DNA of 64,000 bases. Origin: an uncultured delta proteobacterium (GTDB taxonomy: Bacteria > Desulfobacterota > Binatia > Binatales > Binataceae). Under the pieces are notes generated by a model, which was not told the DNA's origin, made no database searches, and saw only the letters and a list, made by a program, of their open reading frames with translations. Every line of letters starts with the position of its first letter. Position 1 is the first letter of the stretch. The stretch covers positions 441,068 to 505,067 of the forward strand of contig CAWBMF010000003.1 of NCBI GenBank assembly GCA_963789835.1. The letters run 5' to 3'. Of the stretch, positions 3,017 to 35,318 are shown in pieces. A program made the translations under genes and the position numbers.

Positions 3017-4771
3017 ATGAATACAGATCTAGTGACAGACAAAACCGACGAGCGCAGTCCCACCTCAGATAGGTTCGATCGCGTTTTCTGGAAACGCTTT
3101 TGGCGATTGATCCGCCCGTATTGGACATCGGAAAGACGGCGGTCGGCCTTCGTGCTGGTTTCGGCAATGACGGTGCTGAATCTCGGCACGGTCGGGATGC
3201 AAGCGGTTTTCAGCTACGTGTCGCGCGACGTGATGAACGCGCTGCAAGCGAAAGACGCCGCACGGTTTCATCATCTCCTGGTGCTATTCGCGCTTTGGAT
3301 CGTGGTGTTCGTGCCCATCGCTGCCTTTTATCCATACTTAAGCGGGCTCCTCAGCATCGACTGGCGCGACTGGATGACAGAAAAATTTGTCAAAGGCATG
3401 CTGCAGGGCAACGCGCTTTACTACATCATGCGCGATCGTACGGTCGACAATCCCGACCAGCGGATCAGCGAAGACGTCAATAGCTTCACGAGCGGTGCGC
3501 TTACCTACTCGATGACCGTGCTGCAGGCGATCGTAACTGCAATCGCGTTTTTTGGAATCTTGTGGGAGATCTCGCGTTGGCTCGCCGTAAGCTTGATCGG
3601 CTATTCGCTGGTCGGCAGCTGGCTGGCCATCGTCATCGGACGCCGTCTGATAGTTATCAACTTCAATCAGCAACGGTTCGAAGCGGACTATCGGTTCGGA
3701 TTGGTCCACGCGCGCGACAATGCCGAAGCGATCGCGCTCTACGACGGCGCGCGCGATGAAGCTCATCAGCTAGGGCGGCGCTTTGCGAGGGTGGTCAACA
3801 ATTACAAGCTGCTCATTTTGTGGCAGCGTCATCTGACGCTCTTTACAGCCGCCTACGACAACGCGGCCAACCTCGTCCCATATTTCGTTTTGGCCGGCGC
3901 CTACTTTTCCGGACGTTTTGCGCTGGGCGAATTTACCCAAGCGGCGTATGCGTTTTCGATTCTGCAGAGTTCGATGGCGCTGGTTGTCGATCAATTCCAG
4001 GCACTTACCGACTACGCATCGGTGGTTAATCGTCTGTCGGTTTTCGAGGAGTCCTGTGAAAAGGCAGCCAGCAAGCAAAGCGATGGCGAGCAGCAAATCG
4101 AGGTAGCGGAAGATGACTCACAGATTGCGCTTAAGAACATCACCCTGGCGACGCCGGATCGCGCGCGCGTTTTGCAGCAGGATGTTTCACTTGCGGTCGC
4201 CCGTAGAGACTCTCTGCTGATCACCGGTCCGACCGGTGCGGGCAAGACCTCGCTCATGAGGGCTGTCGCGGGCCTATGGAGAGCCGGTAGCGGGGGAATC
4301 TTGCGGCCGTCGCCGAATCATATCCTGTTCATGCCACAAAAGCCTTATTTGATCCTGGGTTCGATTCGCCAACAGATTCAATATCCAAGGGCCGACGCGG
4401 TCAGCGACGAAACTCTCATGGAAGTGCTGCGCGAAGTCGACCTTGCCTATCTCCCCGGCCGGTTCGGCGGTCTCGACGCCGAGCTCAACTGGGCCGACTT
4501 GCTGTCGGGGGGCGAGCAGCAGCGTCTGGCCTTCGCGCGGCTCCTGCTCAGTCGACCGCGCTTTGCAATTCTCGACGAGGCAACCAGCGCTCTCGATATT
4601 GCTTCTGAAGAGCGCTTGTACTCGCGGCTTGCGAGCCTGCCCATCGCCTTTATCAGCATCGGGCACCGGCCAAGCCTGCGCAAATTCCATAACCGGGTGA
4701 TCGAGCTGTCCCTTGGCTCCGAGTCGCCGATCGAGATCGTCGGATGCGCCACTAACGAGTCCTCATCCTGA
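3017..4771 (+). CDS. fused ABC transporter permease/ATP-binding protein (ABCD / SbmA-BacA-like, ABC_membrane_2 type)
   Basis: N-terminal TM domain contains the NPDQRISEDV motif. C-terminal NBD has Walker A (GPTGAGKTS), the ABC signature LSGGEQQRLAFARLL and Walker B (ILDEATSALD). Confidence 0.8.
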   Translation: MNTDLVTDKTDERSPTSDRFDRVFWKRFWRLIRPYWTSERRRSAFVLVSAMTVLNLGTVGMQAVFSYVSRDVMNALQAKDAARFHHLLVLFALWIVVFVPIAAFYPYLSGLLSIDWRDWMTEKFVKGMLQGNALYYIMRDRTVDNPDQRISEDVNSFTSGALTYSMTVLQAIVTAIAFFGILWEISRWLAVSLIGYSLVGSWLAIVIGRRLIVINFNQQRFEADYRFGLVHARDNAEAIALYDGARDEAHQLGRRFARVVNNYKLLILWQRHLTLFTAAYDNAANLVPYFVLAGAYFSGRFALGEFTQAAYAFSILQSSMALVVDQFQALTDYASVVNRLSVFEESCEKAASKQSDGEQQIEVAEDDSQIALKNITLATPDRARVLQQDVSLAVARRDSLLITGPTGAGKTSLMRAVAGLWRAGSGGILRPSPNHILFMPQKPYLILGSIRQQIQYPRADAVSDETLMEVLREVDLAYLPGRFGGLDAELNWADLLSGGEQQRLAFARLLLSRPRFAILDEATSALDIASEERLYSRLASLPIAFISIGHRPSLRKFHNRVIELSLGSESPIEIVGCATNESSS

Positions 4772-4844
4772 TGCAATCGGGAAAAGAATCCTGGTGAGAG
4801 AGAACCATGCTTCCGGCTTGATCGCGCCCTCCTCGCCTCCAGAG

Positions 4845-5444
4845 TCAGCTGGGCGGTTGCTTATCCGGTGCCGCATCTCCGTCAAGCAAGCGCTGCAAAT
4901 GGCTGGAGGGAGATTCGTGCGCGGCGTGGCCGTCGTGCCCGGTATTCAAAGCGCAGGCCGGCGTGACGTGAGTCTGCGGCGGCTTGAACTCTGTGGGCAA
5001 CAAACGCTCGCGGGCTGCCCACTGATCGAAATTGCCGGGAGCGCTCGCCAGCAGGCGAAATCGCATACAGACAGTGTTGCAGCCACAACCGGAATCGCAA
5101 TTTCCGTGGAGCTCGCCGGGTGACTTGACGATCAGATCAAGTGGCCGCGTCTTACCGGGAAAGATGTCCACCGCGTCTTTCATTCCAGAAATCCAAAAGC
5201 TGTGGATCACGTCGGCGGAGGCGAGTTCAAGCCGCACATTCGTAGCAGTGGGAAGGTACAGTACATCGCTGGTCTTGATGCCGAGCGACGGGTAATCGAA
5301 TTCCCACCACCACTGATGCGCGACCGCCTTGACCGTGAGCGCAGGCCGGCTGTCGCCATCGACGATTCGAGCGACAGAGATCACTCCGGCGCAGATGCAC
5401 GCCAGACCGACGAGGGCTGCCACGAATGGCAAGGACGATTTCAT
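4845..5444 (-). CDS. cytochrome c oxidase subunit II-like cupredoxin domain protein (single N-terminal TM/signal, divergent CuA motif)
   Basis: HQWWWEFDYP and DVIHSFWIS match the COX2 cupredoxin core. Metal-site region reads HGNCDSGCGCNTVCM, where canonical COX2 reads CxExCGxxHxxM. Start overlaps the upstream SCO gene stop (ATGA). Confidence 0.6.
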   Translation of the reverse strand: MKSSLPFVAALVGLACICAGVISVARIVDGDSRPALTVKAVAHQWWWEFDYPSLGIKTSDVLYLPTATNVRLELASADVIHSFWISGMKDAVDIFPGKTRPLDLIVKSPGELHGNCDSGCGCNTVCMRFRLLASAPGNFDQWAARERLLPTEFKPPQTHVTPACALNTGHDGHAAHESPSSHLQRLLDGDAAPDKQPPS

Positions 5445-6172
5445 GCGCGCGCCGCCTGAAAGATAAGCGCTATGATGGCGCCGTCGGCGGCCGCAACCGG
5501 CTCGTGATCTACAGCCTTCTCGACGTCGCTCGCGACGCGGTCCGGCTCGGCCTTCTCGCCCATGTACTGCAGCAATGCTTTGCCGTTCGCATCGACCAGG
5601 AAGAACTCGAGAACATGATCGACGGTGCCGTCCGCTTCGTGCTTTCGAATCAGATCGAAATGCGCCATCACATCGTCGATCTGTTTTGGCGTTCCCGTAA
5701 GAAACAGCCAGCCATTAACGTCGGCGCCTTGTGCCTTCGCGTATGCGTTCAGCTGTGTAGGTTGATCGTGTTCGGGATCAACCGTGATCGACACGATGCG
5801 CGCTTCCGTTCCAAGCTTGGGCCCGAGTCGATTGGCAATCTGCTTCATCCGGCTCGTGAGGACGAGGCACGGTCCCGGACAGGTGGTGTAGATGAAATCG
5901 AACAGCACGGGTTTGCCCTTCAGCGAGGCCAGGGAAACGTTGTGGCCGTTCTGATCGACCAGCGTGATATCGGGCAAGCAGTCGGAGGCGTCGCGCACCT
6001 CGAATCCTCCACGCTCGCCGATGTCTGGTGCCTCTTGAGCCTGCTGGCGGCAACCAGTCAGCGTCACCGCGCCAACGAGCGTGATCAGCAGCGTCAGAAA
6101 TAAGCTTTTCCTGATTGACGAAACGGTTCGAGTAGAATTCATGGTACTTCTTTTTTTAATTCTCGCCGGCAT
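5441..6172 (-). CDS. SCO1/SenC-family copper chaperone/thiol-disulfide protein (lipoprotein)
   Basis: Thioredoxin-like fold with FIYTTCPGPC (CxxxC) and a downstream His. N-terminal lipobox LTGC. Alternative start MNSTR at ~6142 would remove the overlap with the upstream gene. Confidence 0.75.
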   Translation of the reverse strand: MPARIKKRSTMNSTRTVSSIRKSLFLTLLITLVGAVTLTGCRQQAQEAPDIGERGGFEVRDASDCLPDITLVDQNGHNVSLASLKGKPVLFDFIYTTCPGPCLVLTSRMKQIANRLGPKLGTEARIVSITVDPEHDQPTQLNAYAKAQGADVNGWLFLTGTPKQIDDVMAHFDLIRKHEADGTVDHVLEFFLVDANGKALLQYMGEKAEPDRVASDVEKAVDHEPVAAADGAIIALIFQAARA

Positions 6173-6620
6173 AATTTCTTCGGAGCGCCTCGCGTATCTG
6201 TTCGACCGGCGAGCCCTGCTCCGACAGTTGCTCCGCCATCAACGCCTCTCCGACGCAGATTTCGCACACCGAGGCGTGGGTGCCTCGATAACAATCGAGC
6301 AGATTCTGATGGCCGTAGGTCTTGTCGCATCCGCAATAGCAATGGAGTTGAGCGAGCAGCGCGGGATTCTTCTCCGCGACCTGGTACGCCTGCTTTACCG
6401 GACCGACGTACTGGTTAGGATCGAGCGTCAAGCGCCCCTGCGATCCGCTAGTGGCAACCGTTCCTGCAGTCGCCCGGCCCGCGCAGCAGCAATGGCCCCC
6501 AATGCACATCGCGCCGCGCGCACCGCCATTGTCCGCGATTGAGGCGCCGAACGCTGACCAGAGAAATGCCACTACCAGAACGGCCGCGGCCGAGGAGCCT
6601 AAAATAATTGCTCGCTTCAT
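6156..6620 (-). CDS. PCYCGC-motif protein (PF13798-like) with Cys-rich N-terminal segment
   Basis: HCYCGCDKTYGHQNLLDCY... motif. Signal/TM segment followed by CIGGHCCCAGR. Confidence 0.6.
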   Translation of the reverse strand: MKRAIILGSSAAAVLVVAFLWSAFGASIADNGGARGAMCIGGHCCCAGRATAGTVATSGSQGRLTLDPNQYVGPVKQAYQVAEKNPALLAQLHCYCGCDKTYGHQNLLDCYRGTHASVCEICVGEALMAEQLSEQGSPVEQIREALRRNYAGEN

Positions 6621-6630
6621 TCCGGCACTC

Positions 6631-7275
6631 TCAACTATGGCTCAGAGTTTTCTTAACGTCGTCGACGATGTCCTGCGCCTTGACGATCTGACCGTTGTAT
6701 TCTCGCACCAGCCGCCCATCCGGTCCAATCAGCATCATATTGACCAGGTGGCCGACCGAACCGTCCGGCTCGATTTCCCGGCTCAGCTTGAATCCGGCCA
6801 GCGCCTGATCGATGTCGCCGGGACCTCCGGTCAGGAAATACCATCCCTTCTCATCCGCCCCTTGCTGACGGGAGTAGTCGAGCAATTGCTTGGGCCCGTC
6901 ATGCTCGGGATCGACGGTGATCGAAACGAGCGTCACCTTCGATCCGAGATCGCTGCCGAGCCGCAGCGCGACGTTCGCAAATTTTGCCGTTTCCATCAGG
7001 CACGGTCCCGGGCATGACGTGTAGATGAAATCCACCACCAGTGGTTTGCCCTTGAGTGATGAGAGCTCAACCGTATTGCCATTCTGATCGACCAGCTTGG
7101 TGTCGGTGAGGACACTAGCGGGGCCATTCACGGTTGAGCCGCTGTGGCATCCAGCCGCTGTAAATAAGCTCGAAGCTACGGCCAGCACGATGCCGAGAGA
7201 TCTAAGATTGAAACTAATATTACTCATATCTGTCTCCGTCAAAAGCTGTAACTCAAGATCGTTTTGATCGCGCAA
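6631..7275 (-). CDS. SCO1/SenC-family protein (second copy)
   Basis: FIYTSCPGPC CxxxC motif. Paralogous to 5441..6172 (VDQNGxxVxLxSLKGKPxxxDFIYTxCPGPC). Confidence 0.75.
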   Translation of the reverse strand: MRDQNDLELQLLTETDMSNISFNLRSLGIVLAVASSLFTAAGCHSGSTVNGPASVLTDTKLVDQNGNTVELSSLKGKPLVVDFIYTSCPGPCLMETAKFANVALRLGSDLGSKVTLVSITVDPEHDGPKQLLDYSRQQGADEKGWYFLTGGPGDIDQALAGFKLSREIEPDGSVGHLVNMMLIGPDGRLVREYNGQIVKAQDIVDDVKKTLSHS

Positions 7276-7297: not shown

Positions 7298-7672
7298 TCA
7301 TGGCGTCAGCGACCACGTCAGGACCGGGAGGGGGACCTTCCGATCGAGTGCTTCGGCGTTCTCATACATGGTGCGATCGTCCTCAGCGAGGGTCTCTCTT
7401 GCTTGATTCGAGTTGGCCACGCATTGAGACACATCGCGCTTGAAATACAGTGACTGGATTTCCAGCGGAGAGAGCGCGCCGAGAGGCATCACGACGTTGC
7501 TGGTTACAGCGTCGTCGCTCATCGCCGCTTCTTCGATGCACTTATCCTCGTTTTGATCGAGGCGCTGCTCAGCCTGTTCGAGGTTACTCTTTGCCGCGAC
7601 CGAGTTGTCCGGAGTTTGCGTTGCACAGCCGACGAGAAGAATCGCGATAATGGCGAAGACTCTCATCTTCAA
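7298..7672 (-). CDS. hypothetical lipoprotein
   Basis: Signal peptide plus lipobox (LLVGC). Acidic, coiled protein. Translationally coupled with the upstream TlpA gene (overlap at 7669-7672). Confidence 0.45.
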   Translation of the reverse strand: MKMRVFAIIAILLVGCATQTPDNSVAAKSNLEQAEQRLDQNEDKCIEEAAMSDDAVTSNVVMPLGALSPLEIQSLYFKRDVSQCVANSNQARETLAEDDRTMYENAEALDRKVPLPVLTWSLTP

Positions 7673-8103
7673 TGTCCCTGGCCCGCGTCGTGGGACGCCG
7701 CTCGTTCAGACAATAACGGCAGGACGGCCTTGCTCAGGCTTTGCTCAGTCAGAGGAGTTTCGTCGGGGGTCAGCTTAGCGCGAACAATACCCTGCTCGTC
7801 GACGATGTAAGTGATGGGGAGTTCGGTAGGATCGTTGAAGCCGTTGGATTCGCAATCGCGCAACATCGCTGCCGGGTAAGCGAAGGACTCCATCGTCTTG
7901 GCAACATCCGACCGTTCGTGCAGCCGATTAGCCGCCAGACCGATCATCTCGAGTCCCTTGTCGTGATAGCGTCGATAGAACGCGTCGAGCGTCGGCATTT
8001 CCGCCTGGCACGGAGGGCACCAAGTGGCCCAGAAGTTGACTACGACCACCTTTCCGCGTTGTGCGGCGAGATCAAAGGATTGGCCGTTCAACTCCTGGAC
8101 CAC
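7669..8103 (-). CDS. TlpA/ResA-like thiol-disulfide oxidoreductase (thioredoxin fold); N-terminus probably extends upstream
   Basis: VVNFWATWCPPCQAEMP motif. ORF track starts at a GTG (8101-8103). The same frame stays open up to ~8217 and encodes a signal-like NALAALVLLTISFAATSAC, but has no canonical start codon. Confidence 0.65.
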   Translation of the reverse strand: MVQELNGQSFDLAAQRGKVVVVNFWATWCPPCQAEMPTLDAFYRRYHDKGLEMIGLAANRLHERSDVAKTMESFAYPAAMLRDCESNGFNDPTELPITYIVDEQGIVRAKLTPDETPLTEQSLSKAVLPLLSERAASHDAGQGH

Positions 8104-8223
8104 AAGTGCCGGCGCCGCCTGGCCGATTTCTGCTCCGCCGAAAGCCTCGCACGCACTCGTAGCCGCAAACGAGATTGTCAGAAGAACGAGCGCCGCGAGT
8201 GCATTGCCGCATCTCGATCACCT

Positions 8224-9195
8224 TCAGAAGCTATAGCTGACGATCGTTTTGATCGCGTAAGGCGCCGACAACTGGTAGCCGTTCATGTTGCGAAATATCG
8301 GCAGCTCGACATCTGAGTACCACCTAATCGACTTGTACGCCGTCTCAAGACCAGGAGCGACTTGTATTCTGAAGTAACCACTATCGTGGGGATCTGAATT
8401 TGTCCCGCGGTCGTGGTTCCGGTCGCTGACCAGAAACGTCAGGAACGGCGCAAATTCCGTGAGATAACTGACCTTACCGAAATCGTAGTACGTCCCATAG
8501 CCTCCGTCGAACTCGTGGCCGGGCTTGTAATGGTCCTGATACGCGAACGGCTGATCCCACATGCCTTGCGCATAGTAGCCAAAGGGGCGATCTTCCAATT
8601 TCAGTATCGGAAGAGTGCCCATGTGGTAAGCGCCTATCAGCAGGTCGGTGCTGCCCGTTCCGATCTGAGTGTCACGATCCCACGGCGGGTAGTGCCAGTT
8701 GCCCGACGGAACCTTGAAACCGGCCAAGACACCGGTCGACATATCCTCCTGCAAGCCCGTCCACATGCCCAATATGCGGATGTCGCCTATCGAGTTCGAG
8801 TCGTACGACTTCACGTCATCGTTGTCGCCATTGTAGGCGCCTCGATAATTCCTCTCCCAGTAGGGCACTTCCAGCATCACGCCCCAGCTCCGATTGAACA
8901 TGTATTGCCCGCCGACGGTAACAAAGTTGGTCGCCAACTTCTTGTCGTTGTTGTACTGCCCCGAGGCTGGCCCCGTTGCGTGCCAGTTTATGTACTGGTT
9001 CATGAAGTCGTACTCGATCCACGCCATCGCACCAGCGCCCATAGGAAGCAGTGAGGGCGTCGCGACTTCGAACACCCCACATCCGCATGCGCACGCCCGA
9101 ACCATGCCAGGCGTTAGCCCCACAAATAGAACGGCGGCGACCAACAAGCGTCGAGCCGCGTTGGACAAAAGCACAAACTCAGAAATCCGTCTCAT
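8224..9195 (-). CDS. putative outer-membrane beta-barrel protein
   Basis: Signal peptide, Gly/Tyr/aromatic-rich alternating sequence and C-terminal ...IVSYSF (terminal Phe). Unusual N-terminal MRACACGCGVFE Cys cluster. Confidence 0.5.
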   Translation of the reverse strand: MRRISEFVLLSNAARRLLVAAVLFVGLTPGMVRACACGCGVFEVATPSLLPMGAGAMAWIEYDFMNQYINWHATGPASGQYNNDKKLATNFVTVGGQYMFNRSWGVMLEVPYWERNYRGAYNGDNDDVKSYDSNSIGDIRILGMWTGLQEDMSTGVLAGFKVPSGNWHYPPWDRDTQIGTGSTDLLIGAYHMGTLPILKLEDRPFGYYAQGMWDQPFAYQDHYKPGHEFDGGYGTYYDFGKVSYLTEFAPFLTFLVSDRNHDRGTNSDPHDSGYFRIQVAPGLETAYKSIRWYSDVELPIFRNMNGYQLSAPYAIKTIVSYSF

Positions 9196-9349: not shown

Positions 9350-9625
9350 TTAAAATCGATCGATTGCACCGATTTTGTCACGGTGGTCGAGCCCAGGTCG
9401 AAAAGAGCGAACTCTGGTAGAACTGTCGCTGGACGGGCAAGCAACATGTTCTGAGACCTGATCGAACATTTGAAGCGGCTGGCAAATGTTAACGGTCAGT
9501 TCTGGATGGCTCGGTCCGGAGACAATCACGAACCCAGCAGTCGAGGGAGCGCTTCCCAAGAACAACACGATCGCTAAGATTAAACTCAACGCCCGTAGGT
9601 CAGCCTTTGAAAACAAGCCCCGCAT
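9350..9625 (-). CDS. small membrane/secreted protein (paralog of 10675..11031), partner of DUF2318 gene
   Basis: MRGLFSKADLRALSLILAIVLFLGSAPSTAGFVIVSGPSHPELTVNICQPLQMFD. Near-identical N-terminal half to the 10675..11031 product. Confidence 0.4.
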   Translation of the reverse strand: MRGLFSKADLRALSLILAIVLFLGSAPSTAGFVIVSGPSHPELTVNICQPLQMFDQVSEHVACPSSDSSTRVRSFRPGLDHRDKIGAIDRF

Positions 9626-9639
9626 ACTGCAGTGCACCC

Positions 9640-10131
9640 TTAGAACAGTCCCCGCTCGCGTTCAAGATCGGCCGGGTTGATGTTGACGGTGTGGCCAGTC
9701 GTCTGGAACGGCAGTTTCACCGGCACACACGACACGAACCCGGACTCCATTGATTCCAACTTGTATCGAGTGCCGCAATATCTGCAGACGAGATACCCGT
9801 GTGAACTGGCGTAACCCTCGCCATACATGGAGCAGCGTCGGCACGCGTCGAAAGCTCCCTTAATCTTTCCAGTGGAGTCACGAGCTAGAAGAAACCGAAT
9901 CTGGTCGCCCGCCCGATCCTTGTATGAGAAGAAATGAACATCACCGGGCTGTAGGCTATCGGTTTCAATGCTTACGATCGGATTTGCGCTGACGGTGATG
10001 AATTGAGGACCCGTCGCCATCGCGACCAATGAGACTGCGACTGTCATGAAAGCAGCGGCAATCAACAGTCCAGTACGCCCTCGAAATCTGGTGATCGCGG
10101 AAGCCGTTTTTAAGGACCGCGGAATCTTCAT
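9640..10131 (-). CDS. DUF2318-like Cys-rich membrane protein (CxxC...CxxC)
   Basis: TM segment followed by FDACRRCSMYGEGYASSHGYLVCRYCGTRYKL...CVPVKLP. Start placed at internal MKIPRSLK to avoid overlap with the upstream YHS gene; the ORF could extend to 10233. Confidence 0.5.
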   Translation of the reverse strand: MKIPRSLKTASAITRFRGRTGLLIAAAFMTVAVSLVAMATGPQFITVSANPIVSIETDSLQPGDVHFFSYKDRAGDQIRFLLARDSTGKIKGAFDACRRCSMYGEGYASSHGYLVCRYCGTRYKLESMESGFVSCVPVKLPFQTTGHTVNINPADLERERGLF

Positions 10132-10180
10132 AGCGAACGTCCTACCGTGTGTCTCAGTTAGACTCGAGCCGCGCGACCGC

Positions 10181-10552
10181 TTAAGGTGCCGAGTTCGCGG
10201 CGGGCGTAATGCCTTCCGATAGATGCTTCGCAAGATACTTCTTGGGAGTTTTCACGAAAGCGTCGCGCTCCATGTCGTCGCAAAAGTAGTAATCCTTCCC
10301 ATCGAACGTGGCGGCTGGCGTATCGGACTTTACCGTAAGATGCATTCCGCAATACGCGCACATCGTCTTCTTTCCAACGTCACTGGCTGGCGCTTGCGAA
10401 AGAACGCTTGCGATCTCAGGCGAAGCCGCGCGAGCGGAACCTGAGAAGTAGAAAAAGCCACTCAGAACCACCGACATCGTCGCGATTAAGACGATGGCCT
10501 TGTTTCTATGCAGTGCACTGCTCTTTCGTATCTCGGCTGATGTGAAATTCAT
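10181..10552 (-). CDS. YHS-domain-like metal-binding protein (membrane-anchored)
   Basis: N-terminal TM segment. MCAYCGMHLTVKSDTPAATFDGKDYYFCDDMERDAFVKTP resembles the YHS/TRASH CxxCGM motif. Confidence 0.5.
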   Translation of the reverse strand: MNFTSAEIRKSSALHRNKAIVLIATMSVVLSGFFYFSGSARAASPEIASVLSQAPASDVGKKTMCAYCGMHLTVKSDTPAATFDGKDYYFCDDMERDAFVKTPKKYLAKHLSEGITPAANSAP

Positions 10553-10674: not shown

Positions 10675-11031
10675 CTAGACGGGTAGCTTTGGCGGCGGCG
10701 TGTCGGGAGCGAAGCGAAAATCGACCGGTCGCCCAGCCATCTTGACAACGGTCAAGCCCAGGTCGCGCAGAACGAACTCGGGCTGTACCGTCGCAGGTCG
10801 GGCAAGCAAGGTGTTCGACGCACGGTCGAACATTTGAAGCGGCTGGCAGATGTTGACGGTCAATTCAGGATGACTCGGTCCGGAGATAACGACGAACCCT
10901 GCCGTCGAAGGGAAGCTGGCCAACAACATGACGATGGCCAGGATTAAACTCAGATCTCGAAGATCCGACTTTGAAAACATGCGTCCCATTTCTTCTACAG
11001 ATCTCTTAGAACAGTCCTCGCTCATGTTCAA
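10675..11031 (-). CDS. small membrane/secreted protein (paralog of 9350..9625)
   Basis: MFSKSDLRDLSLILAIVMLLASFPSTAGFVVISGPSHPELTVNICQPLQMFD. C-terminal tail diverges from the other copy. Confidence 0.4.
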   Translation of the reverse strand: MNMSEDCSKRSVEEMGRMFSKSDLRDLSLILAIVMLLASFPSTAGFVVISGPSHPELTVNICQPLQMFDRASNTLLARPATVQPEFVLRDLGLTVVKMAGRPVDFRFAPDTPPPKLPV

Positions 11032-11039
11032 GATCGACG

Positions 11040-11419
11040 GGCTTGATGTCGACGGTGTGCCCGGTCATCCGAAATGGCAATTTCACGGGCACGCATGATC
11101 CGCGCCCGGATTCCATCGCATCCAACTTGTACCGATTGCCGCAATATCCGCAGACGAGGTCCCCGTGTGAACTGTCATAGCCCTTCCGATACATCGAGCG
11201 CCGTCGAATTCCTTGCCTGGCACATAGAGGTCGCTGTGCAGAAACGGATATTCGTACTGAACCTGCGCGTACCAGTTGATGGGCCGCTCCCACAAGGTGA
11301 GGTTGAAGTTGCCAATCCGGTTCGGAAGCGACCCTGTGTGTGGCGAATTGTTGATTTTGGCAGAACCGGAAGCCGGAGTGCAGACTTGCTAACGGTCCCC
11401 ACTCTCCCAAGGACAGCAA
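11040..11419 (-). pseudogene. degenerate DUF2318 paralog fragment fused to an outer-membrane-protein-like remnant
   Basis: The last ~65 aa (RRRSMYRKGYDSSHGDLVCGYCGNRYKLDAMESGRGSCVPVKLPFRMTGHTVDIKPVDLEHERGLF) align with the C-terminus of 9640..10131. The first CxxC and the TM region are lost. An overlapping frame (11083..11295) reads like the C-terminal strands of a beta-barrel protein. Confidence 0.4.
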
Positions 11420-11504: not shown

Positions 11505-14500
11505 CTACTTGGGGCATACTCCCGTCGTGTTCGGTTGCGTCGAGTAGAGGCATTGTGCGCCAGCTATAGTTGAGTTTTGGAGATTGTAGTTGACGTTCCA
11601 TTGGAACGGATTATCAGGATTCATTGCGTTGAATGGCGACGGCATCGGCCGCTCATCGCGATCATCGGCAACGAAGCACTTATCCTTCTCGTTGGGACCG
11701 CACGCGGCAGGAAAGGTTATCTGGAAGGCCGGACAACCCGGTGCCGGGCAGTCTACAAACTGGGGAGGGCAGCCGGCTGGATTCGTACAGTTAAGAGGGA
11801 AAGGCTGAATCGACCAATCGCAAACGGTCTGACCCAAGGGATTCGTTTGTTTGCAAATGCTCGCATAGGGGCCACTCGGATTGCACTGACACCGTTCGGC
11901 GCTCTGACTCCAGGTACACATAGTAGCTGGTTGGCAATAACGCTTACCCAGTGAAACGGGAGGTTTCGTGTTCGCGGCCGTTGCATTTAAGCTATAGTTA
12001 CCAGCGATCTGGGAGAAATTGGTGCTAAGTGTCAGGATGCCCGAGCTAGGAGTATACTTAGCCGTCCATGCGCCACTCATGACATCTTTGACTGGGGCTG
12101 GAGTGAAGTTAAACGGCAGGGTTAAACCTTCGTAGCCGAAGACTACATTGGTTGCGGCGAAGTCTTTGTTGTCCTTTGTCGGTATATTCTTACCCACGAA
12201 CACCTGGTAGGTCTGCTGCGTGTCCTGCTTCGAGAAGAGAAAGAAAAGATCGTAGACGCTCCCGCCAGTAAAAACATTGAAACTTTGGAAAGGTGGGACC
12301 GCGTTCGCCTGGCTCTTCCTCGAGACCGTCGTGTTGAGGTAGTAGGCGCCGTGATTGACGGTCAGAGCGCTGCGCTGGAAATTGTTCTGCCCCATCATCC
12401 GCTTCAATTGGATATCGGGATCTGTTTTTTCTCCCGGCGTGAGTAGTTGTCGATAGAGCTGTACGCCGGGGCATCCGAAGTTGGGAGGTGACGCCGTACA
12501 GACGCTGCCCCAGTTGTCGTCGTTTGGACAAAAACTGGGAGCTCCACTCTCAGGAGGCGGCGGAGCCAGCTTTGCGCATTCAGGATAGATCACCGTACTT
12601 ACATATTCGTAGGGGCTGGTTTTCGCGGTAGCGGGCAAGCACTTTGGAGCATAAGTACTGGCATTTGTCGGATAATCCGAAGCGCATTCCCAGGCTTCGG
12701 TCGGAGCCTTGAAGAAATCCGCCTTGTTGACCGAGATTGTGTCGTACTGGGTGCTCATACTTGGGGTTGGTGTCGCTGTTGGTACGGGAGGACCCACCGG
12801 GCTGGTCAAGCCGGTCAGCGTGCCGTCATCGTCGTTCAACACCGTCTCTCGATCGATGTCGGTAAAGCCTTGGAAGTATGCTGGATTCCAAGTGCAGTAT
12901 TCTTTTTTCGTCGCGTCCTCGTCGGTTTTGAAGCTCAAGGGGCCCTTTAGGAAGCTTGGGTCGGTGACAAAATGGCGGATGTCGACGCCGTTGAAGTACA
13001 GATTGAGCGAATGAAACGCGGGCGCGTAGTAAAAGCCGTTGGGCTGTTTCCATCCAATCCCTGCGTTGGGCTCAAAGCAGCGAGCGCCACCAGCGATCGG
13101 CATGTCCTTCGCGTCGAGCGGCCGGTAAGCGCGCAGGCCATTGACCCCGCCACTAATGAAACCCGCAAACTGACAGGGATTGCCGGCGACGCTGCTAGGC
13201 TCACACTTGCCGCCCTTGGTATCCAGCACCGCGCCTTTGGCAGTTCCGTCGGCGGTCAACCAGGTAGGGTGAATGTCGAGATAGGCGTTGGAGTCCTGAA
13301 AAATGGGACCGTCGTAAACGCTGAAGAGCCGCTGAAAGCCTGCGAAGGCGCCTACCTGAAAGTTCACGCCATCTTTCTGCGATAGACAGAATGCATTGTT
13401 AGAATTTCCGTTGAAGGGATCGAGGGCGCAGGTCAATCCAGTGATTTTACTGTTCTCGCCTGTTCCAATCGTGGCCTTAAATGGATTGAAAGGTCCGGCG
13501 TTGGACGCGTAGGGATTCGCGGCGAGAGCGCTGTTATTTGGATTCTGCCATTGAGAACTCCCGATGAGCGCAGATTGCCGCACCAACCCCCAATAACCGG
13601 GAAATACAGAAGCAGCGTCGTAACCGCCACTGGTTACGAAATTGACTCCGGCGTTCTGCGGATCGCTGATGATGCTGTCAACTGCCAACGACCACAGCGA
13701 TCTCATCCAGACGGCGGCGAAGTTGCCCTCCGCCCAGTTGAACGAGGTCGTAAACCCGTTGAGCACGACCACGTCGCAATTGGCTTGATTCGCCGATGCG
13801 CAGATGGGGACGGTTGAGCAGTCGGGGTTGGTGTTGCCATTGTCAGCCGCCGGACAGCGCGTCGGCAGACGCAGGCCGGTGACCTGAGGCCAGTAAGCAG
13901 TGCCGGAGGGCGGCGGAGCCTGGGGTGAGGGCACCATCAGAAGCGTAGAGTTTGGAGCTTTCAGGAAACTCGGATCAATCTGGTTGACGCCGTTGCAAGC
14001 GGCTAGAGCGCCGACCTCGACAAAGCCTTCCATTGCCGTGCTACAGGAGTTGCCGACGAAGTTTTGCAGCGGGCTGATGCCGGCCCGTCCTATGCCGACT
14101 TGCTCGCCGGCGTATCCGTACCATTTCTCGGTCTGCGAAGGGCCGCTAATCGCTCCCGGCACCAGCCAGTAGCAGGCGCCGCACTCGCCGGCGCCGGCCG
14201 CCATGTTGTACTGGAAGTCATTCATGCCGTTCATGATCCAGAACACTGACGGATTTTGTGAGTCCGAGTAATAAGGAAGGGTGCTATATCCGCTGACACA
14301 AAATTGAGGAGTCTCTTTTGTACAGCAATTTGGAGGGTTGCCCGTACAGGTTGGCGCAGTAGCCGTCAGGATACCTGGAACCATGCGCGGATTCTGCGGA
14401 TTGGCGTCGGCCGCCGTTAAGCCATTGGCCACTGCGCCGCGCGCGAAAGCGCCGAGATTGGCGTACAGCTGATTGCCGGTCTCGGTGCCGTCCTCGAGAT

Positions 14501-15902
14501 AATAGCCGTGACCGATCGACTCGAAGCCTACATTGCGCGCCAGCCGGACGCCCTGGGTAGCATGAATCGTTATCCAGCGCGTCATTGAATCCCATATCGA
14601 AGAGTCCTTGACGAAGGTGATCGGCTGGGTCGCGCCTATCCCTGGCACCTGGCGGTCCATGTGGAAGTGCACCGGGTAGTGCATGATGCTGCCGCCCTGG
14701 CCGAGTTGATAGAACTCGACGCCCTGCACCTGGTAAAGCAGGAAGCCCTGACGCACGATAGTGTGGCCGCCGAAATAGTTGTCGGGATTTCCCGGATCGA
14801 CTGTGAACTCCGAGCCCGGCGTATCGCCGTCGGAAACAACCCGGATGTTGCGCGACAGCAACCCCACCGAGGCGCGCAGATCGCCCGAGGTAGGGAAGTT
14901 CGGCCCAAGACGCGATATGCCGGGGAAGGTCGCGTTGGACAGGTCGAATAGTTGCCCATTGTGCGGATACTGGACCGCGGTGAGGAGTGGAATCGTCGTA
15001 ACCCCGCCGCTGGTAGTGGGCGTACCATTGATATTCAGGTGCTCCGAATGCCCAGGCAGATAGTCGGTGGTGGTCAGTACGATATCGTCGCCGTTTTGCC
15101 AATCCACTGCGCCAGCAACCTGCAGGCTCGTATCGCCGGGCAGCGCATTCTTATTCAAGCGAACCCAGCTGGTCCCGGTGCACGAGGAACTATTTTCCAT
15201 GCATCCGGTCGCGGACGTGCTGCCATAGGTTGCGCCTTTCGCGCCGAACATTTGTAGCGTGCCGTTGTAAGACACCGCCAGCACCTTGTGCCCAAAATAG
15301 GCGGTGGGGTTGTTCGTCTGATCCGCCGGGTCCAGTGCGTCATAGTCGTAGAAGCAGTCGCTAACGCCACCTGGCAGCGCAGACGGCTTGCACGTAGCTG
15401 GATTCATCGAGCGCGTATTGGTTCCCAGGGGAGGGCTCGGGATGCCGCAGTTGGCGGACGCACAGGTAACCCCGGGATCGCCCGGCGCACCCCACAGATG
15501 AATTGTCACCAGGCCGCCGTTGGTTCCGATCGGGGTTTCAGAGCCCGCGATTAAAGCGCCGCCGCTCTCGACGACGATGTTCTCCGCGTAGAAGTCGATC
15601 TGCGCGTCATCGAAGGTCAAGATGCCTTTACTGCCACCTGAAGTAAAAATGTTGACGTTGTGGAAGTAGTAGGTGAGAGAGGGGACGCTGGCGGAGCCCT
15701 TTACCTCGCACGGACCGGTGACCTGGAGATCGGTGGTGGCGCCGGCAGACATCTCGTTGGGCATCAACGGCATGTCCGCCGTGTCGTTACAGGTCACCAC
15801 CGTAGCCATTGCGGGGCTGGCGAAAAGTACGAACAGCATCGATAAGATCAAGCCGGAAAGTGAAAGCTTATTGGAGCATTCGATTCGAGACTTTATCGAC
15901 AT
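11505..15902 (-). CDS. very large secreted Cys-rich protein (1465 aa), function unknown; possible beta-helix / G8-like carbohydrate-active fold
   Basis: Signal peptide (LILSMLFVLFASPAMA), many Cys and Gly/Asn-rich repeats, and a central YPVHFHMDRQ motif. Long uninterrupted frame. Confidence 0.55.
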   Translation of the reverse strand: MSIKSRIECSNKLSLSGLILSMLFVLFASPAMATVVTCNDTADMPLMPNEMSAGATTDLQVTGPCEVKGSASVPSLTYYFHNVNIFTSGGSKGILTFDDAQIDFYAENIVVESGGALIAGSETPIGTNGGLVTIHLWGAPGDPGVTCASANCGIPSPPLGTNTRSMNPATCKPSALPGGVSDCFYDYDALDPADQTNNPTAYFGHKVLAVSYNGTLQMFGAKGATYGSTSATGCMENSSSCTGTSWVRLNKNALPGDTSLQVAGAVDWQNGDDIVLTTTDYLPGHSEHLNINGTPTTSGGVTTIPLLTAVQYPHNGQLFDLSNATFPGISRLGPNFPTSGDLRASVGLLSRNIRVVSDGDTPGSEFTVDPGNPDNYFGGHTIVRQGFLLYQVQGVEFYQLGQGGSIMHYPVHFHMDRQVPGIGATQPITFVKDSSIWDSMTRWITIHATQGVRLARNVGFESIGHGYYLEDGTETGNQLYANLGAFARGAVANGLTAADANPQNPRMVPGILTATAPTCTGNPPNCCTKETPQFCVSGYSTLPYYSDSQNPSVFWIMNGMNDFQYNMAAGAGECGACYWLVPGAISGPSQTEKWYGYAGEQVGIGRAGISPLQNFVGNSCSTAMEGFVEVGALAACNGVNQIDPSFLKAPNSTLLMVPSPQAPPPSGTAYWPQVTGLRLPTRCPAADNGNTNPDCSTVPICASANQANCDVVVLNGFTTSFNWAEGNFAAVWMRSLWSLAVDSIISDPQNAGVNFVTSGGYDAASVFPGYWGLVRQSALIGSSQWQNPNNSALAANPYASNAGPFNPFKATIGTGENSKITGLTCALDPFNGNSNNAFCLSQKDGVNFQVGAFAGFQRLFSVYDGPIFQDSNAYLDIHPTWLTADGTAKGAVLDTKGGKCEPSSVAGNPCQFAGFISGGVNGLRAYRPLDAKDMPIAGGARCFEPNAGIGWKQPNGFYYAPAFHSLNLYFNGVDIRHFVTDPSFLKGPLSFKTDEDATKKEYCTWNPAYFQGFTDIDRETVLNDDDGTLTGLTSPVGPPVPTATPTPSMSTQYDTISVNKADFFKAPTEAWECASDYPTNASTYAPKCLPATAKTSPYEYVSTVIYPECAKLAPPPPESGAPSFCPNDDNWGSVCTASPPNFGCPGVQLYRQLLTPGEKTDPDIQLKRMMGQNNFQRSALTVNHGAYYLNTTVSRKSQANAVPPFQSFNVFTGGSVYDLFFLFSKQDTQQTYQVFVGKNIPTKDNKDFAATNVVFGYEGLTLPFNFTPAPVKDVMSGAWTAKYTPSSGILTLSTNFSQIAGNYSLNATAANTKPPVSLGKRYCQPATMCTWSQSAERCQCNPSGPYASICKQTNPLGQTVCDWSIQPFPLNCTNPAGCPPQFVDCPAPGCPAFQITFPAACGPNEKDKCFVADDRDERPMPSPFNAMNPDNPFQWNVNYNLQNSTIAGAQCLYSTQPNTTGVCPK

Positions 15903-32436: not shown

Positions 32437-33589
32437 CATCTGGCCCTCCAAGCTCGCAGGTCGAAGCACGATTCAGGTGAATTGTGACTTACTCGTATAC
32501 AACCTGGAAATCAGACCTTGGTCCGATAGAAACCGACTACGCCACTCGGCAAATATCGTGCGGGCACTCATACAGAGAGCAGCCTTATCTTCTCTCGAGC
32601 GGGAGCCGACAAGACGGAAGGACAATTGATCCCATGAAAAAGTCGATGATGATCAGCTCTTTAGTCGCTCGGAAGCGGCAGCGTATCTCAAGAATAAGAC
32701 TACTACGTCGACGCGAAGGCCGTTCTTTACCATTGATACTCGCGGTCGCAATAATCGCGTTTACGACGCCGACGGGCTACTCGTTCGGCGCAGATCAACC
32801 TGGCGCTGCATCGACTGAACCCGGACCGGCTCCGGGGGCTGCTACCCAGAAAGAACTGGAGGAGCTGGTCTCGCCGATAGCACTGTATCCGGACTTATTG
32901 GTTGCCCGAATCCTGGCGGCCTCGACCTATCCAAATCAAGTCGTCGAGGCGCATGAGTGGCTGCAACAAAACAAGAACCTTTCGCACGAACAGCTAGCGG
33001 CGCAAGTGAATGCGCAATCCTGGGATCCCAGCATCAAATCGTTGGCACAGTTTTCTCCGGTGCTACAAACGATGAGCGACAGCTTGGCATGGACTTCGGC
33101 GCTCGGGGAAGCATACTTCAACCAGCCTGACGATGTTATGGAGGCGATTCAGGCATTGCGCAGTCGAGCGATCGAAGCTGGAACCCTCAAGACTACGGCA
33201 CAACAAAAGGTCGAAGTTCAACCCGCAGCCCCACCTGCATCATCGGCAGGCGAGGCGACAGCCCGTCGCACAGCAGCAAACAGTAGTCATTCAGCCAGCC
33301 CAACAAAACGTCGTGTATGCGCCCCAATACGACCCCGCGACAGCCTACGGAGCTCCCGTGCAAGAACCCGCCGGATATACCGGGACCGAGATGTTGACGA
33401 CTGGGTTGTTGTCCTTCGGAGCCGGGATGGCGCTGGGGGCACTTATCAACGAAGACGACGATGATTGGGACTGCGATTGGTCTGATGGTGGCGGCTCGGT
33501 TCATTACAACAACAATGTTTACGTTTCCAATTCGCCGATCCCACCAGCAGGGGGCAACTATCCAGCAAGACCTCCGGCTGCAAACCGTC

Positions 33590-33775
33590 CGGGAGGAGTC
33601 GGCGGGCCAGGCGGTGCGGGCGGCCCTGGCGGAATCGGCGGGCCCGGGGCGGTCGGTAGACCCGGTGGAGTTGGCGGGCCTGGCGGTGTGGGCGGCGCTG
33701 GGGGAGTTGGCGGCCCTGGCGGTGTCGGGGGCCCAGGGGGAATCGGCAGGCCTGGAGGAGTTGGCGGAAGTCCTC
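33590..33775 (+). repeat. imperfect tandem repeats (period ~15-18 nt) encoding GGVGGPGG units
   Basis: ggagtcggcgggccaggcggtgcgggcggccctggcggaatcggcgggcccggggcggtcggtagacccggtggagttggcgggcctggcggtgtgggcggcgctggggga... Confidence 0.6.
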
Positions 33776-34164
33776 GACCTAACCCCGTCCGCGGAACGAG
33801 TTCCCCCAGCAGGATTTCAGGACCATCTACTCGGCCATATAATCCATCAAAGGCCAGGCCGTACGCTGGCGTAAATCCGAACGTAACTAAGCCGACCTTC
33901 CCAGCGGCCAGCACTCTTCCTAACAATCCGGGACTCGGGAACTCGAACGGAAATCTTGCGCAAAACCAGCCCATGCGAAATGGGAATGCGTCAGCGCAGT
34001 CAGCTAATAGGATGGCATCTAACCGACCCGCAACAGCGAATCGCGCCAACAATCAGATGCGAGGGTTTGGCAACGGTTCTGATTCGAAGGGCGGACGCAA
34101 CGGCGCATTCGGTGGCTATCAGCCCGGTGGAAGAGCTCAAGCCTCGAGCAATCGTGGAAGGGCC

Positions 34165-34282
34165 AGCCTCGGCGGAGGCGGGTCCGGCGGGCGCGGTGGA
34201 GGTGGTGGCCGGGGCGGCGGCGGTGGCCGAGGTGGTCGAGGTGGCGGTGGTGGCCGCGGCGGAGGCGGTGGACGACGACGCT
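34165..34282 (+). repeat. GGY/CGN repeat tract encoding (G5R)n tail
   Basis: ggcggaggcgggtccggcgggcgcggtggaggtggtggccggggcggcggcggtggccgaggtggtcgaggtggcggtggtggccgcggcggaggcggtgg. Confidence 0.6.
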
Positions 34283-34361
34283 AGTCGGCGATCCGGGCCG
34301 CTCCCGAGGCTCCTTCGCAATCGGAACGTGTTAGAGGAACCCGAATCAACAGAGATTAACG

Positions 34362-35318
34362 ATGCTCAAGATCATGAGTTCTACTATGGCCAACAGAGAT
34401 AGACATATCGGCATGATCGCGGCGCTCGCCTGTAGCGTTATGATCGCATCAACTGCAATAGCTGCGACCCCGTCAGGACAGCAGGCATACCCATCAGCGG
34501 CGGCAGCAGGAAAGGCTCTGGTAGCGGCAGCACGTGCTGACGATATGGCGGCTCTTTCGTCGATCCTGGGCGGAGACGCAAAAGAGATTCTCTCCTCCGG
34601 AGATCCGGTTGCCGATAACAACGCGCGTGACAATTTTGTTGCCAAATACAATGAAATGAACCGCTTGGGCTATGATGAGAAGGGACGAGTGATCTTGTAT
34701 CTGGGAGCCGACAACTGGCCCTTCCCGATTCCGCTGATAAAGAGGGCCGACGGATGGGTGTACGATACGGCGGCTGGCAAAAGAGAGCTACTCTACCGTC
34801 GGATCGGTCGCAACGAACTCTTTACGATCGACGTCCTGGCAGACCTTGCTGAGGCGCAACAGGAATATGCAAGCGAGATTGCGGATAAGGGCGGCCTCAA
34901 GGAATTTGCTCAAAAGATCCAGAGCGACCCTGGCAAACACGATGGCCTATATTGGCCTGTCAATTCTGGGGAAGAGGAGAGCCCAATCGGACCTCTAATT
35001 GCCGATGCTACAGCCGAGGGCTATAAGACTGGAACCGGCACGCCTATTCCTTTTCACGGCTACTACTACAAAGTCCTCACCCGGCAGGGAAAAAATGCTC
35101 CCGGTGGAGCGATAGACTATCTCGAACAGGGGAAAATGACGCGGGGGTTCGCCTTCCTCGCCTATCCGGCCAAATACGGTGCTTCAGGCGTTATGACGTT
35201 TATGATAAATCAGGACGGCGTTATCGTTCAGAAGGACCTTGGTGCAGATACGGCAAAGGCGGCTGGCGAAATAACCGAATACAATCCCGACGCGACTTGG
35301 GAGGAAGACGACGATTAA
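34362..35318 (+). CDS. DUF2950-family secreted protein
   Basis: Signal peptide. YYYKVLTRQGKNAPGGAIDYLEQGKMTRGFAFLAYPAKYGASGVMTFMIN matches the DUF2950 pattern. This family is usually encoded next to DUF3300. Confidence 0.6.
   Translation: MLKIMSSTMANRDRHIGMIAALACSVMIASTAIAATPSGQQAYPSAAAAGKALVAAARADDMAALSSILGGDAKEILSSGDPVADNNARDNFVAKYNEMNRLGYDEKGRVILYLGADNWPFPIPLIKRADGWVYDTAAGKRELLYRRIGRNELFTIDVLADLAEAQQEYASEIADKGGLKEFAQKIQSDPGKHDGLYWPVNSGEEESPIGPLIADATAEGYKTGTGTPIPFHGYYYKVLTRQGKNAPGGAIDYLEQGKMTRGFAFLAYPAKYGASGVMTFMINQDGVIVQKDLGADTAKAAGEITEYNPDATWEEDDD

Follow-up and report, generated by a model that had tools for sequence, protein, structure and literature searches.

Introduction

Biology has few classic copper centres, and CuA is among them. 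To our knowledge, its ligand set is regarded as essentially fixed, and variation has come mostly from protein engineering, together with PmoD. The side chain of the Glu in the CuA loop also binds Mg at the interface between subunits I and II of the oxidase. The canonical motif of the centre is H-X34-CXEXCX3HX2M (PMC6669012). Here we describe COX2L, our name for the protein encoded by an open reading frame (ORF) on the minus strand, at 4845..5444, of a 64,000-nucleotide stretch from an uncultured member of the Binataceae (contig CAWBMF010000003.1, positions 441,068 to 505,067; hereafter the window). COX2L has the cupredoxin fold of cytochrome c oxidase subunit II (COX2) and keeps half of the CuA ligand set. 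Its genetic context suggests a role in copper trafficking linked to Sco proteins.

During CuA assembly, the Cys residues of both ScoI and CoxB are reduced by TlpA. Docking of ScoI-Cu on CoxB follows, and the site is finished by a chaperone whose Met/His arm is flexible (PMC6669012). COX2L resembles CoxB/CtaC (caa3-type; 2yev_B, and 4w9z from Bradyrhizobium) in its fold, the DVIHSFW segment, the X34 spacing, the two bridging Cys, the axial Met and the QWWW motif, and it shares with CoxB the genetic partners that assemble the site, Sco and TlpA. Unlike CoxB, it has Thr in place of His and Ser in place of Glu, with Cys122, Cys126, Met88 and Cys164 added; it has no cytochrome c domain, second transmembrane (TM) helix or adjacent COX1 gene, and is restricted to Binatia. 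CyoA and QoxA are likewise COX2 cupredoxins without canonical CuA (1cyw and 1cyx, root-mean-square deviation (rmsd) from COX2L ~2 Å). Wild-type CyoA (1cyw) and its variant with an engineered CuA (1cyx) are separate entries in the PDB, and because CyoA has lost CuA, the cupredoxin fold does not need the CuA ligands. CyoA, however, lost its copper ligands altogether and stays an oxidase subunit encoded beside subunit I, whereas COX2L keeps His/Cys/Cys/Met, gains further candidate sulfur ligands and is encoded apart from oxidase genes.

Two further groups of proteins concern copper handling. PmoD and AmoD are periplasmic cupredoxins that are anchored in the membrane and have a Cys/Met/His copper site of a non-canonical kind. 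In bacteria that possess copper monooxygenases their genes lie close to copCD and to genes for copper chaperones, and they may either load copper or supply electrons (PMC6189053). PmoD has an N-terminal signal peptide, a C-terminal TM helix and a Cx7MxHxnC motif outside the classical CuA loop (PMC6189053). Its site lies at a homodimer interface, with Cx7MxH near the N-terminus, whereas COX2L rewires the classical beta7-beta8 CuA loop itself. COX2L does not belong to PmoD/AmoD, as its anchor is N-terminal and its Cys lie within the classical loop. PCuAC/PcuC and CopI use cupredoxin-type folds for copper handling and not for respiration (PMC6669012, PMC13308877), as COX2L probably does. Their flexible His/Met-rich extensions capture and pass on copper, in functional cooperation with Sco (PMC6669012, PMC13308877). 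These families differ from COX2L: PcuC carries the motif H(M)X10MX21HXM, CopI has a plastocyanin-like site and His/Met regions, and their chemistry is mainly that of Met and His, whereas COX2L is dominated by Cys. PmoD and PcuC/CopI are the nearest functional precedents, and none of them is homologous to COX2L in the relevant loop.

Results

COX2L is a COX2 cupredoxin with a rewired ligand loop

The gene and the parts of its product are as follows.

4845..5444, minus strand, COX2L gene; 199 residues, last gene of a minus-strand operon
5358..5432, minus strand, N-terminal TM anchor (residues 5-29); the sole helix of the structural model, corresponding to TM2 of canonical subunit II
5043..5339, minus strand, cupredoxin beta-sandwich (residues 36-134), from the structural model and Foldseek
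5202..5204, minus strand, His81, the retained first CuA His (DVIHSFW); invariant
5181..5183, minus strand, Met88, which replaces a canonical Leu; clade-specific, 125/129
5064..5099, minus strand, rewired ligand loop C116-D-S-G-C120-G-C122-N-T124-V-C126-M127, from alignment, codons and conservation
4848..4997, minus strand, flexible C-terminal tail (residues 150-199), from conservation and model confidence

COX2L matched the Pfam COX2 model PF00116 with 50.7 bits (E 2.1e-13, cutoff 22), and the same domain was present in 120 out of the best 120 of 304 homologues. A phmmer search of the PDB gave subunit II of the Thermus caa3 oxidase (2yev_B) as the top match (E 1.7e-24, 33% identity), with the alignment beginning at residue 17 of COX2L and residue 102 of the chain. 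We then examined an AlphaFold2 (AF2) model built on 62 family members. The strands of the beta-sandwich were predicted with a predicted local distance difference test (pLDDT) score of 84-96, and residues 167-199 of the tail were disordered (pLDDT <50). In Foldseek comparisons the model matched 2yev_B with a probability of 1.00, and superposed on soluble CoxB (4w9z) with an rmsd of 2.0 Å over 132 columns and on CyoA (1cyx) with 1.8 Å over 123 columns. By profile and by fold, COX2L belongs to the superfamily of COX2 periplasmic cupredoxin domains. Its single TM helix contrasts with the two of A-type subunit II, and, by homology, the cupredoxin domain should face the periplasm. No twin-arginine (Tat) motif was visible in the COX2L sequence, so a cofactor would have to be inserted in the periplasm, which suits copper and not an Fe-S cluster.

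The ligand loop aligns with that of 2yev_B without gaps (GFCAELCGASHARM in 2yev_B, GNCDSGCGCNTVCM in COX2L). Cys116 and Cys120 align with the two bridging Cys of CuA and Met127 with the axial Met. Thr124 occupies the position of the second CuA His and Ser118 that of the Glu, and Cys122 and Cys126 are extra relative to the CuA loop. The DNA codons agree, with Cys at 5097-5099, 5085-5087, 5079-5081 and 5067-5069, Thr at 5073-5075 and Met at 5064-5066. The spacing from His81 to Cys116 is X34, matching the canonical motif, but COX2L does not carry the full motif H-X34-C-X-E-X-C-X3-H-X2-M.

Conservation was assessed in 129 homologues, a clade set defined by the four loop Cys, and in a comparison set of 118 canonical relatives. 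His81 is kept in all 129 clade members and in all 118 canonical COX2 proteins, and Met127, present in 129/129, is also conserved in the canonical relatives. On the other hand, Glu at position 118 and the second His at position 124 are each found in 0 of 129 clade members and in 118 of 118 canonical relatives. The former second-His position varies across the clade (T, A, S, K, G or N), and because of this variability the residue there is not a ligand. Natural losses of Cys122 or Cys126 are rare. Further clade-specific changes are Ala to Asp117, Gln to Asn115 and Trp to Asp103; the electron-entry Trp (W45), the QWWW motif and most of the COX2 core are retained. COX2L therefore keeps half of the CuA ligand set (His81, Cys116, Cys120 and Met127). 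In the other half, His and Glu are replaced, and sulfur donors appear to have been added, namely Cys122, Cys126, Cys164 on the tail and probably Met88, a possible extra thioether donor.

Concerning the tail, Cys164 is a fifth near-invariant periplasmic Cys, found in a P-A-C-A-L context in 118 of 121 sequences, and Pro162 is near-invariant as well. A His/Arg-rich stretch, HDGHAAHESPSSH, follows at residues 170-182, and then a conserved L-Q-R-L-L-D motif at residues 183-188. The His residues are partly conserved, with H173 in 90/121 sequences and the others in ~50/121. The C-terminal extension of PcuC (PMC6669012) offers an analogy, on which the tail may act as an arm for passing metal or for docking.

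A preliminary description of this gene, made from the letters alone, had reported a COX2 cupredoxin core with a single N-terminal hydrophobic segment, and had proposed a structural comparison with COX2 domains. The core is borne out by PF00116, the 2yev_B alignment and the AF2/Foldseek results, including the superposition on CoxB. The only helix of the model, aligned with TM2 of 2yev_B, agrees with the single segment. The description had also noted the first His in DVIHSFW with its conserved spacing, and the loss of the second His and the Glu with the gain of two Cys, all of which hold in the ungapped alignment and, for the loop, in the codons. Its His-rich C-terminal tail exists, with the partial conservation given above. 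Cys164, Met88 and the L-Q-R-L-L-D motif are conserved features beyond those that it listed. The description had named misalignment as a way in which its proposal could fail. A misaligned second His is ruled out, as the loop is ungapped against both 2yev_B and 1cyx and the sole nearby His (H113) is not conserved.

The four-Cys proteins form a single clade in Binatia

A word-indexed search identified 304 homologues of COX2L. The best 120, which were examined, are 54-94% identical and ~190-205 residues long, and where named they belong to Candidatus Binatus or Binataceae. At least 129 homologues carry H-X34-C-[DE]-S-G-C-G-C-x-T-V-C-M, a nearly invariant loop. An exhaustive hidden Markov model (HMM) search of 1.84 billion cluster representatives returned 35 matches at E <=1e-30. 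About 17 of these have the four-Cys loop, with an abrupt switch to canonical COX2 at E ~1e-38; no loops transitional between the canonical and four-Cys types were found among the 1.84 billion representatives, with only three degenerate exceptions. In a rough neighbour-joining tree, calculated without bootstrap, all four-Cys proteins fall into one clade, which answers the question raised in the preliminary description of whether the CDSGCGC loop variant forms a clade of its own.

We also scanned one genome per GTDB species. The best 80 loci comprised 33 four-Cys loci, all from Binatia-type metagenome-assembled genomes (MAGs) from soil, peat, palsa and similar samples, and 47 loci with canonical COX2 of Chloroflexota, Acidimicrobiales and Binataceae themselves. 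The four-Cys clade was thus found only in Binatia-type MAGs, which also own normal COX2-COX1 operons. The four-Cys proteins are labelled "cytochrome c oxidase subunit II" or "hypothetical protein" in public records, divergent members having automatic "oxidase subunit 2" labels only, and we found no curated family describing a four-Cys COX2 clade, nor any paper on it in the literature on orphan subunit II-like cupredoxins, PCYCGC proteins, gene clusters of copC, copD, rhodanese, MauE and Sco, and copper in Binatota.

The loop and the predicted ligand residues are under strong purifying selection; dN/dS of COX2L against eight orthologues was 0.16-0.27. We also considered whether the gene might be a pseudogene or a fragment of a longer ctaC, the other way in which the initial proposal could have failed. 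This is ruled out by the steady length of ~200 residues in more than 120 homologues and by the dN/dS of ~0.2.

Relation of COX2L to heme-copper oxidases

COX2L scored 98.9 bits against the CoxB equivalog model TIGR02866, under the cutoff of 147.7. Scores were also low against CyoA (TIGR01433, 55.3 vs a cutoff of 266.2) and QoxA (TIGR01432, 35.5 vs 240.95). We then looked for COX1, using the motif GHPEVY, around the 47 canonical loci, 38 four-Cys loci and in the window. In the canonical set, 44 of 47 loci have GHPEVY ~1 kb downstream of COX2. The scan detected it in a single one of the 38 four-Cys loci (L008 in our numbering), 7.6 kb away, and nowhere in the 64-kb window. Pfam scans of the large ORFs across the window found neither COX1 nor COX3. 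Among the other loci, Pfam added a B-type COX1 in L040 that the GHPEVY scan had missed, which brings the four-Cys loci with an oxidase gene nearby to 2/38. The ligand set, the number of TM helices, the CoxB score and the lack of an adjacent COX1 support well the conclusion that COX2L is not the electron-entry CuA subunit of an oxidase. This part of the preliminary interpretation stands on these grounds; its proposal of a chaperone or copper-handling protein is backed strongly, though indirectly, by the conserved neighbourhood described below, with its SCO1, TlpA-like, CopCD, YHS and other Cys-rich proteins, and the interpretation as a whole is supported in part.

L040 is the most divergent four-Cys member. 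At 3650-5766 of this locus, a B-type (ba3-like, CHEYCGAGH loop) COX2-COX1 pair is split across three frames, and the pair could be a relic of the origin of the family or reflect long-read indels. A long stop-free frame in L040 had suggested a SCO-COX2L fusion. This was ruled out: SCO and COX2L are two distinct genes, and what precedes COX2L in the long frame is GC-rich sequence read out of frame.

COX2L lies in a conserved cluster with SCO1 and TlpA-like genes

The genes upstream of COX2L in the window are the following.

5441..6172, minus strand, SCO1/SenC copper chaperone with a CPGPC motif and His (Pfam PF02630, E 1e-28), directly upstream of COX2L
6156..6620, minus strand, Cys-rich protein of the CYCXC/PCYCGC family (NCBIfam NF041379, 111 bits vs a cutoff of 90; Pfam PF13798)
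6631..7275, minus strand, second SCO1/SenC paralogue, forming a pair with the CYCXC gene in this locus and in others
7298..7672, minus strand, lipoprotein of ~124 residues with two conserved Cys, no family assigned, conserved in the cluster
7669..8103, minus strand, TlpA/ResA-like periplasmic thioredoxin (WCPPC), from family models
8224..9195, minus strand, putative outer-membrane beta-barrel protein (weak OMP_b-brl Pfam match, none above cutoff)
9350-9637, minus strand, small membrane protein with a ELTVNICQPLQMFD motif
9640-10233, minus strand, FtrD-like Cys4 protein
10181-10552, minus strand, YHS-domain protein

COX2L starts at the stop of the upstream SCO1 gene, with an overlap of 4 bp, and the two genes are probably translationally coupled. 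SCO1 adjoins COX2L in every four-Cys locus with readable flanks. We compared the neighbourhoods by tblastn of the neighbour proteins against all four-Cys loci. The TlpA-like gene is present in the cluster in most of the loci with enough upstream sequence, so that COX2L shows the conserved genetic linkage to both Sco and TlpA that would be looked for in a client of the TlpA/Sco copper-insertion pathway. Other Binatia contigs repeat the gene order of the window, and the core that recurs runs as follows: small protein, CxCxC outer-membrane protein, TlpA, (lipoprotein), SCO and COX2L. In L036 the unit is reduced to a minimal pair of COX2L and SCO flanked by unrelated genes.

The barrel protein at 8224..9195 has A-C-A-C-G-C-G-V-F right after its signal peptide. 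This motif is conserved in L001, L002 and L004, and in most Binatia loci the gene for the CxCxC barrel protein is found in synteny with the SCO/COX2L cluster. We consider that it may form a thiolate-lined copper channel. Searches of PDB sequences with this protein and with the CYCXC protein gave no meaningful relatives, and Pfam gave no match for the lipoprotein. A regular-expression search for the PCuAC motif in all 85 loci and the window found no credible match, although this is a weak negative.

Frequent additions to the core are a downstream pair encoding a rhodanese and a MauE/DoxX protein, an OMP-CopC-CopD set and extra SCO-CYCXC pairs. The rhodanese (membrane-anchored, YCSGGDCHDSR) and the MauE/DoxX membrane protein (LDCGCFG) directly follow COX2L in ~20 loci, often with a ~306-residue barrel-like protein and then CopC-CopD after them, and may supply reducing power or sulfur to the cluster. 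The loci recorded with the pair are as follows.

L001, L004-L007, L016-L020, L022-L024, L027, L029, L031-L033: rhodanese-MauE/DoxX, downstream of COX2L

SCO1 paralogues are recurrently paired with the CYCXC/PCYCGC protein, named "CYCXC family (seleno)protein" in NCBIfam (the window, L006, L021, L030, L032 and L034), and L002 and L025 each have SCO paired with an FtrD-like gene. It seems that several of the Sco paralogues each go with a different Cys-rich partner.

Several further features of the window were observed. An in-frame stretch resembling a signal peptide, ALAALVLLTISFAATSACEAFG, precedes the listed GTG start of the TlpA-like gene (8103-8215, minus strand), and the only ATG upstream of this gene (~8211) sits in another frame. 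The anomaly reflects either a 1-bp indel (an assembly error or a real frameshift) or an unusual start codon. The upstream part of the cluster has been partially duplicated, and the decayed copy lies at 10700-11340 (minus strand). It comprises a fragment of the CxCxC outer-membrane protein (residues 191-232), the FtrD-like protein reduced to its C-terminal third (74% identical) and the small ELTVNICQPLQMFD protein once more, its frame broken. Immediately upstream of the copper cluster, 11505-15902 (minus strand) encodes a 1465-residue secreted protein with CEMIP beta-helix and G8 domains. A DUF3300/DUF2950 gene pair is present at 32484-35318 (plus strand), and its DUF3300 region, split over the overlapping ORFs 32484-33464 and 33133-34284, suggests a frameshift. 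A scan of the COX2L operon for promoters and terminators gave the same counts as shuffled sequences.

Discussion

COX2L is probably a new copper-handling protein, as its sequence and neighbourhood suggest. The reading that we prefer, with a probability of roughly 0.5, is that it provides a Sco-loaded, TlpA-reduced and thiolate-rich periplasmic copper site for copper trafficking rather than respiratory electron entry. On this reading COX2L would be an orphan descendant of cytochrome c oxidase subunit II that is no longer an oxidase subunit, now a membrane-tethered periplasmic protein and putative copper binder in a Sco-centred copper-trafficking system of Binatia. The retention of His81 and Met127 in 129/129 members argues that a metal site persists. 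Taking into account the absence of a Tat signal, the invariance of these two residues and the dedicated reductant in the cluster, copper is favoured over an Fe-S cluster or a pure disulfide array. The CoxB scaffold, the retained half site and the genetic tie to Sco/TlpA factors argue for COX2L as a client of Sco.

In terms of mechanism, the TlpA-like thioredoxin would keep the cysteines of SCO and COX2L reduced, and may be fed by the MauE/DoxX-rhodanese pair that lies downstream in many loci. SCO would dock on COX2L, as ScoI does on CoxB, and hand over copper. COX2L would then hold the metal in a thiolate/thioether-rich site, which may be either a small Cu(I)-thiolate cluster or a modified binuclear centre where Cys substitutes for His. 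In this role it could buffer copper, or relay it between the outer-membrane channel with the Cys motif, SCO and, as targets, the CopC/CopD importer or cuproenzymes, with its Cys/His tail as a transfer arm.

A number of points weigh against this reading. Copper binding by COX2L is a prediction from sequence and context, and the five periplasmic Cys could instead form disulfides. The confidence of the AF2 model is lower exactly at the loop (pLDDT ~65-75 for residues 120-130). The retention of W45 and of the overall COX2 surface is compatible with a role in electron transfer. In L008 the whole cluster follows COX1/COX3, which lie 6-8 kb upstream, and in L040 the frameshifted B-type COX2-COX1 pair is directly upstream of SCO-SCO-COX2L. 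The rhodanese-MauE pair and CopCD are absent downstream of COX2L in the window, so neither can be an obligatory partner. Whether copper flows towards uptake, delivery to enzymes or sequestration is a guess.

Other explanations of the rewired loop have to be compared with copper trafficking. COX2L might be an electron-transfer cupredoxin, with a purple-like binuclear or a mononuclear copper centre in which a Cys thiolate takes the place of the lost His, acting for instance in the reduction of Cu(II) to Cu(I) for import by CopCD or serving the thiol-redox module of MauE and rhodanese. Half of the CuA ligand set, the Trp of QWWW and most of the COX2 core are indeed invariant, SCO and TlpA are assembly factors that a CuA-type centre requires (PMC6669012), and PmoD, a membrane-anchored cupredoxin near copCD, forms a CuA-like centre with unorthodox ligands (PMC6189053). 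We nevertheless regard this as unlikely, in view of the lack of any redox partner conserved beside COX2L except thiol proteins, the variable residue at the former His position and the occasional natural loss of Cys122 or Cys126; thiolate-rich ligands and a flexible Cys/His tail are also more like Cu(I) chaperones than rigid sites. It is rather improbable that the Cys-rich loop is a metal-free, redox-active or structural disulfide array, which would make COX2L, for example, a decoy or substrate for the thiol-oxidoreductase activity of TlpA/SCO, or a redox sensor. Such an array would fit the five periplasmic Cys and a neighbourhood rich in thioredoxin-fold proteins (TlpA and two SCO) together with MauE/rhodanese, and some Sco proteins have been proposed to be thiol-disulfide oxidoreductases (PMC6669012). 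However, the invariant His81 and Met127 would be unexplained without a metal, CopC/CopD, YHS and SCO all indicate copper, and a reductant of the TlpA type implies that the reduced thiol is the functional state.

An alternative subunit II with a modified electron-entry site, assembling in trans with a heme-copper oxidase encoded elsewhere, seems very unlikely to us. The homology of COX2L to COX2 extends throughout, its helix corresponds to TM2, and ba3-type oxidases also have a subunit II with one helix; the positions of COX2L behind B-type COX2-COX1 in L040 and of the cluster behind COX1/COX3 in L008 point the same way. On the contrary, no oxidase gene is nearby in 36 of the 38 loci or in the window, oxidase operons of Binataceae carry their own canonical COX2 (L038, L046, L051, L060 and L073), and the members have all lost the interface Glu, with COX2L scoring under both the CoxB and CyoA cutoffs. 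The chance that the site holds another cofactor, such as an Fe-S cluster, Zn or a soft toxic metal (Hg, Ag or Cd), appears slight. The Cys4 constellation is compatible with Fe-S or Zn, an FtrD-like Cys4 protein is encoded in the cluster, and rhodanese, a possible sulfur donor, is often found directly downstream. Yet COX2L has no Tat signal for the export of a pre-assembled Fe-S protein, we know of no Fe-S motif of the form C-x3-C-x-C-x3-C, and SCO, CopCD and YHS are copper-specific neighbours.

Extending the trafficking reading, we tentatively suggest, while holding it doubtful as a whole, that the CuA scaffold has been re-engineered into an undescribed sulfur-dominated copper centre (4-5 Cys, 1-2 Met and one His), either binuclear with a terminal thiolate or a tri- or tetranuclear Cu(I)-thiolate cluster. 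Built by a dedicated Sco, this centre might be the hub of a Binatia-specific, Cys-based system of copper acquisition leading from the CxCxC channel through SCO/COX2L to CopCD or cuproenzymes.

The COX2L clade is an experiment of nature with the CuA loop, showing one form that it can take once a subunit II has left the oxidase, and should interest bioinorganic chemists and researchers on Sco proteins. The functions of Sco beyond oxidase assembly are a long-standing question, and COX2L is a probable new Sco client. In genome annotation, the automatic label "cytochrome c oxidase subunit II" on COX2L genes would inflate predictions of respiratory capacity. Binatia are abundant uncultured bacteria of soil and peat that encode copper monooxygenases (PMC8262859), and COX2L may provide an entry point to their Cys-rich copper-trafficking cluster.

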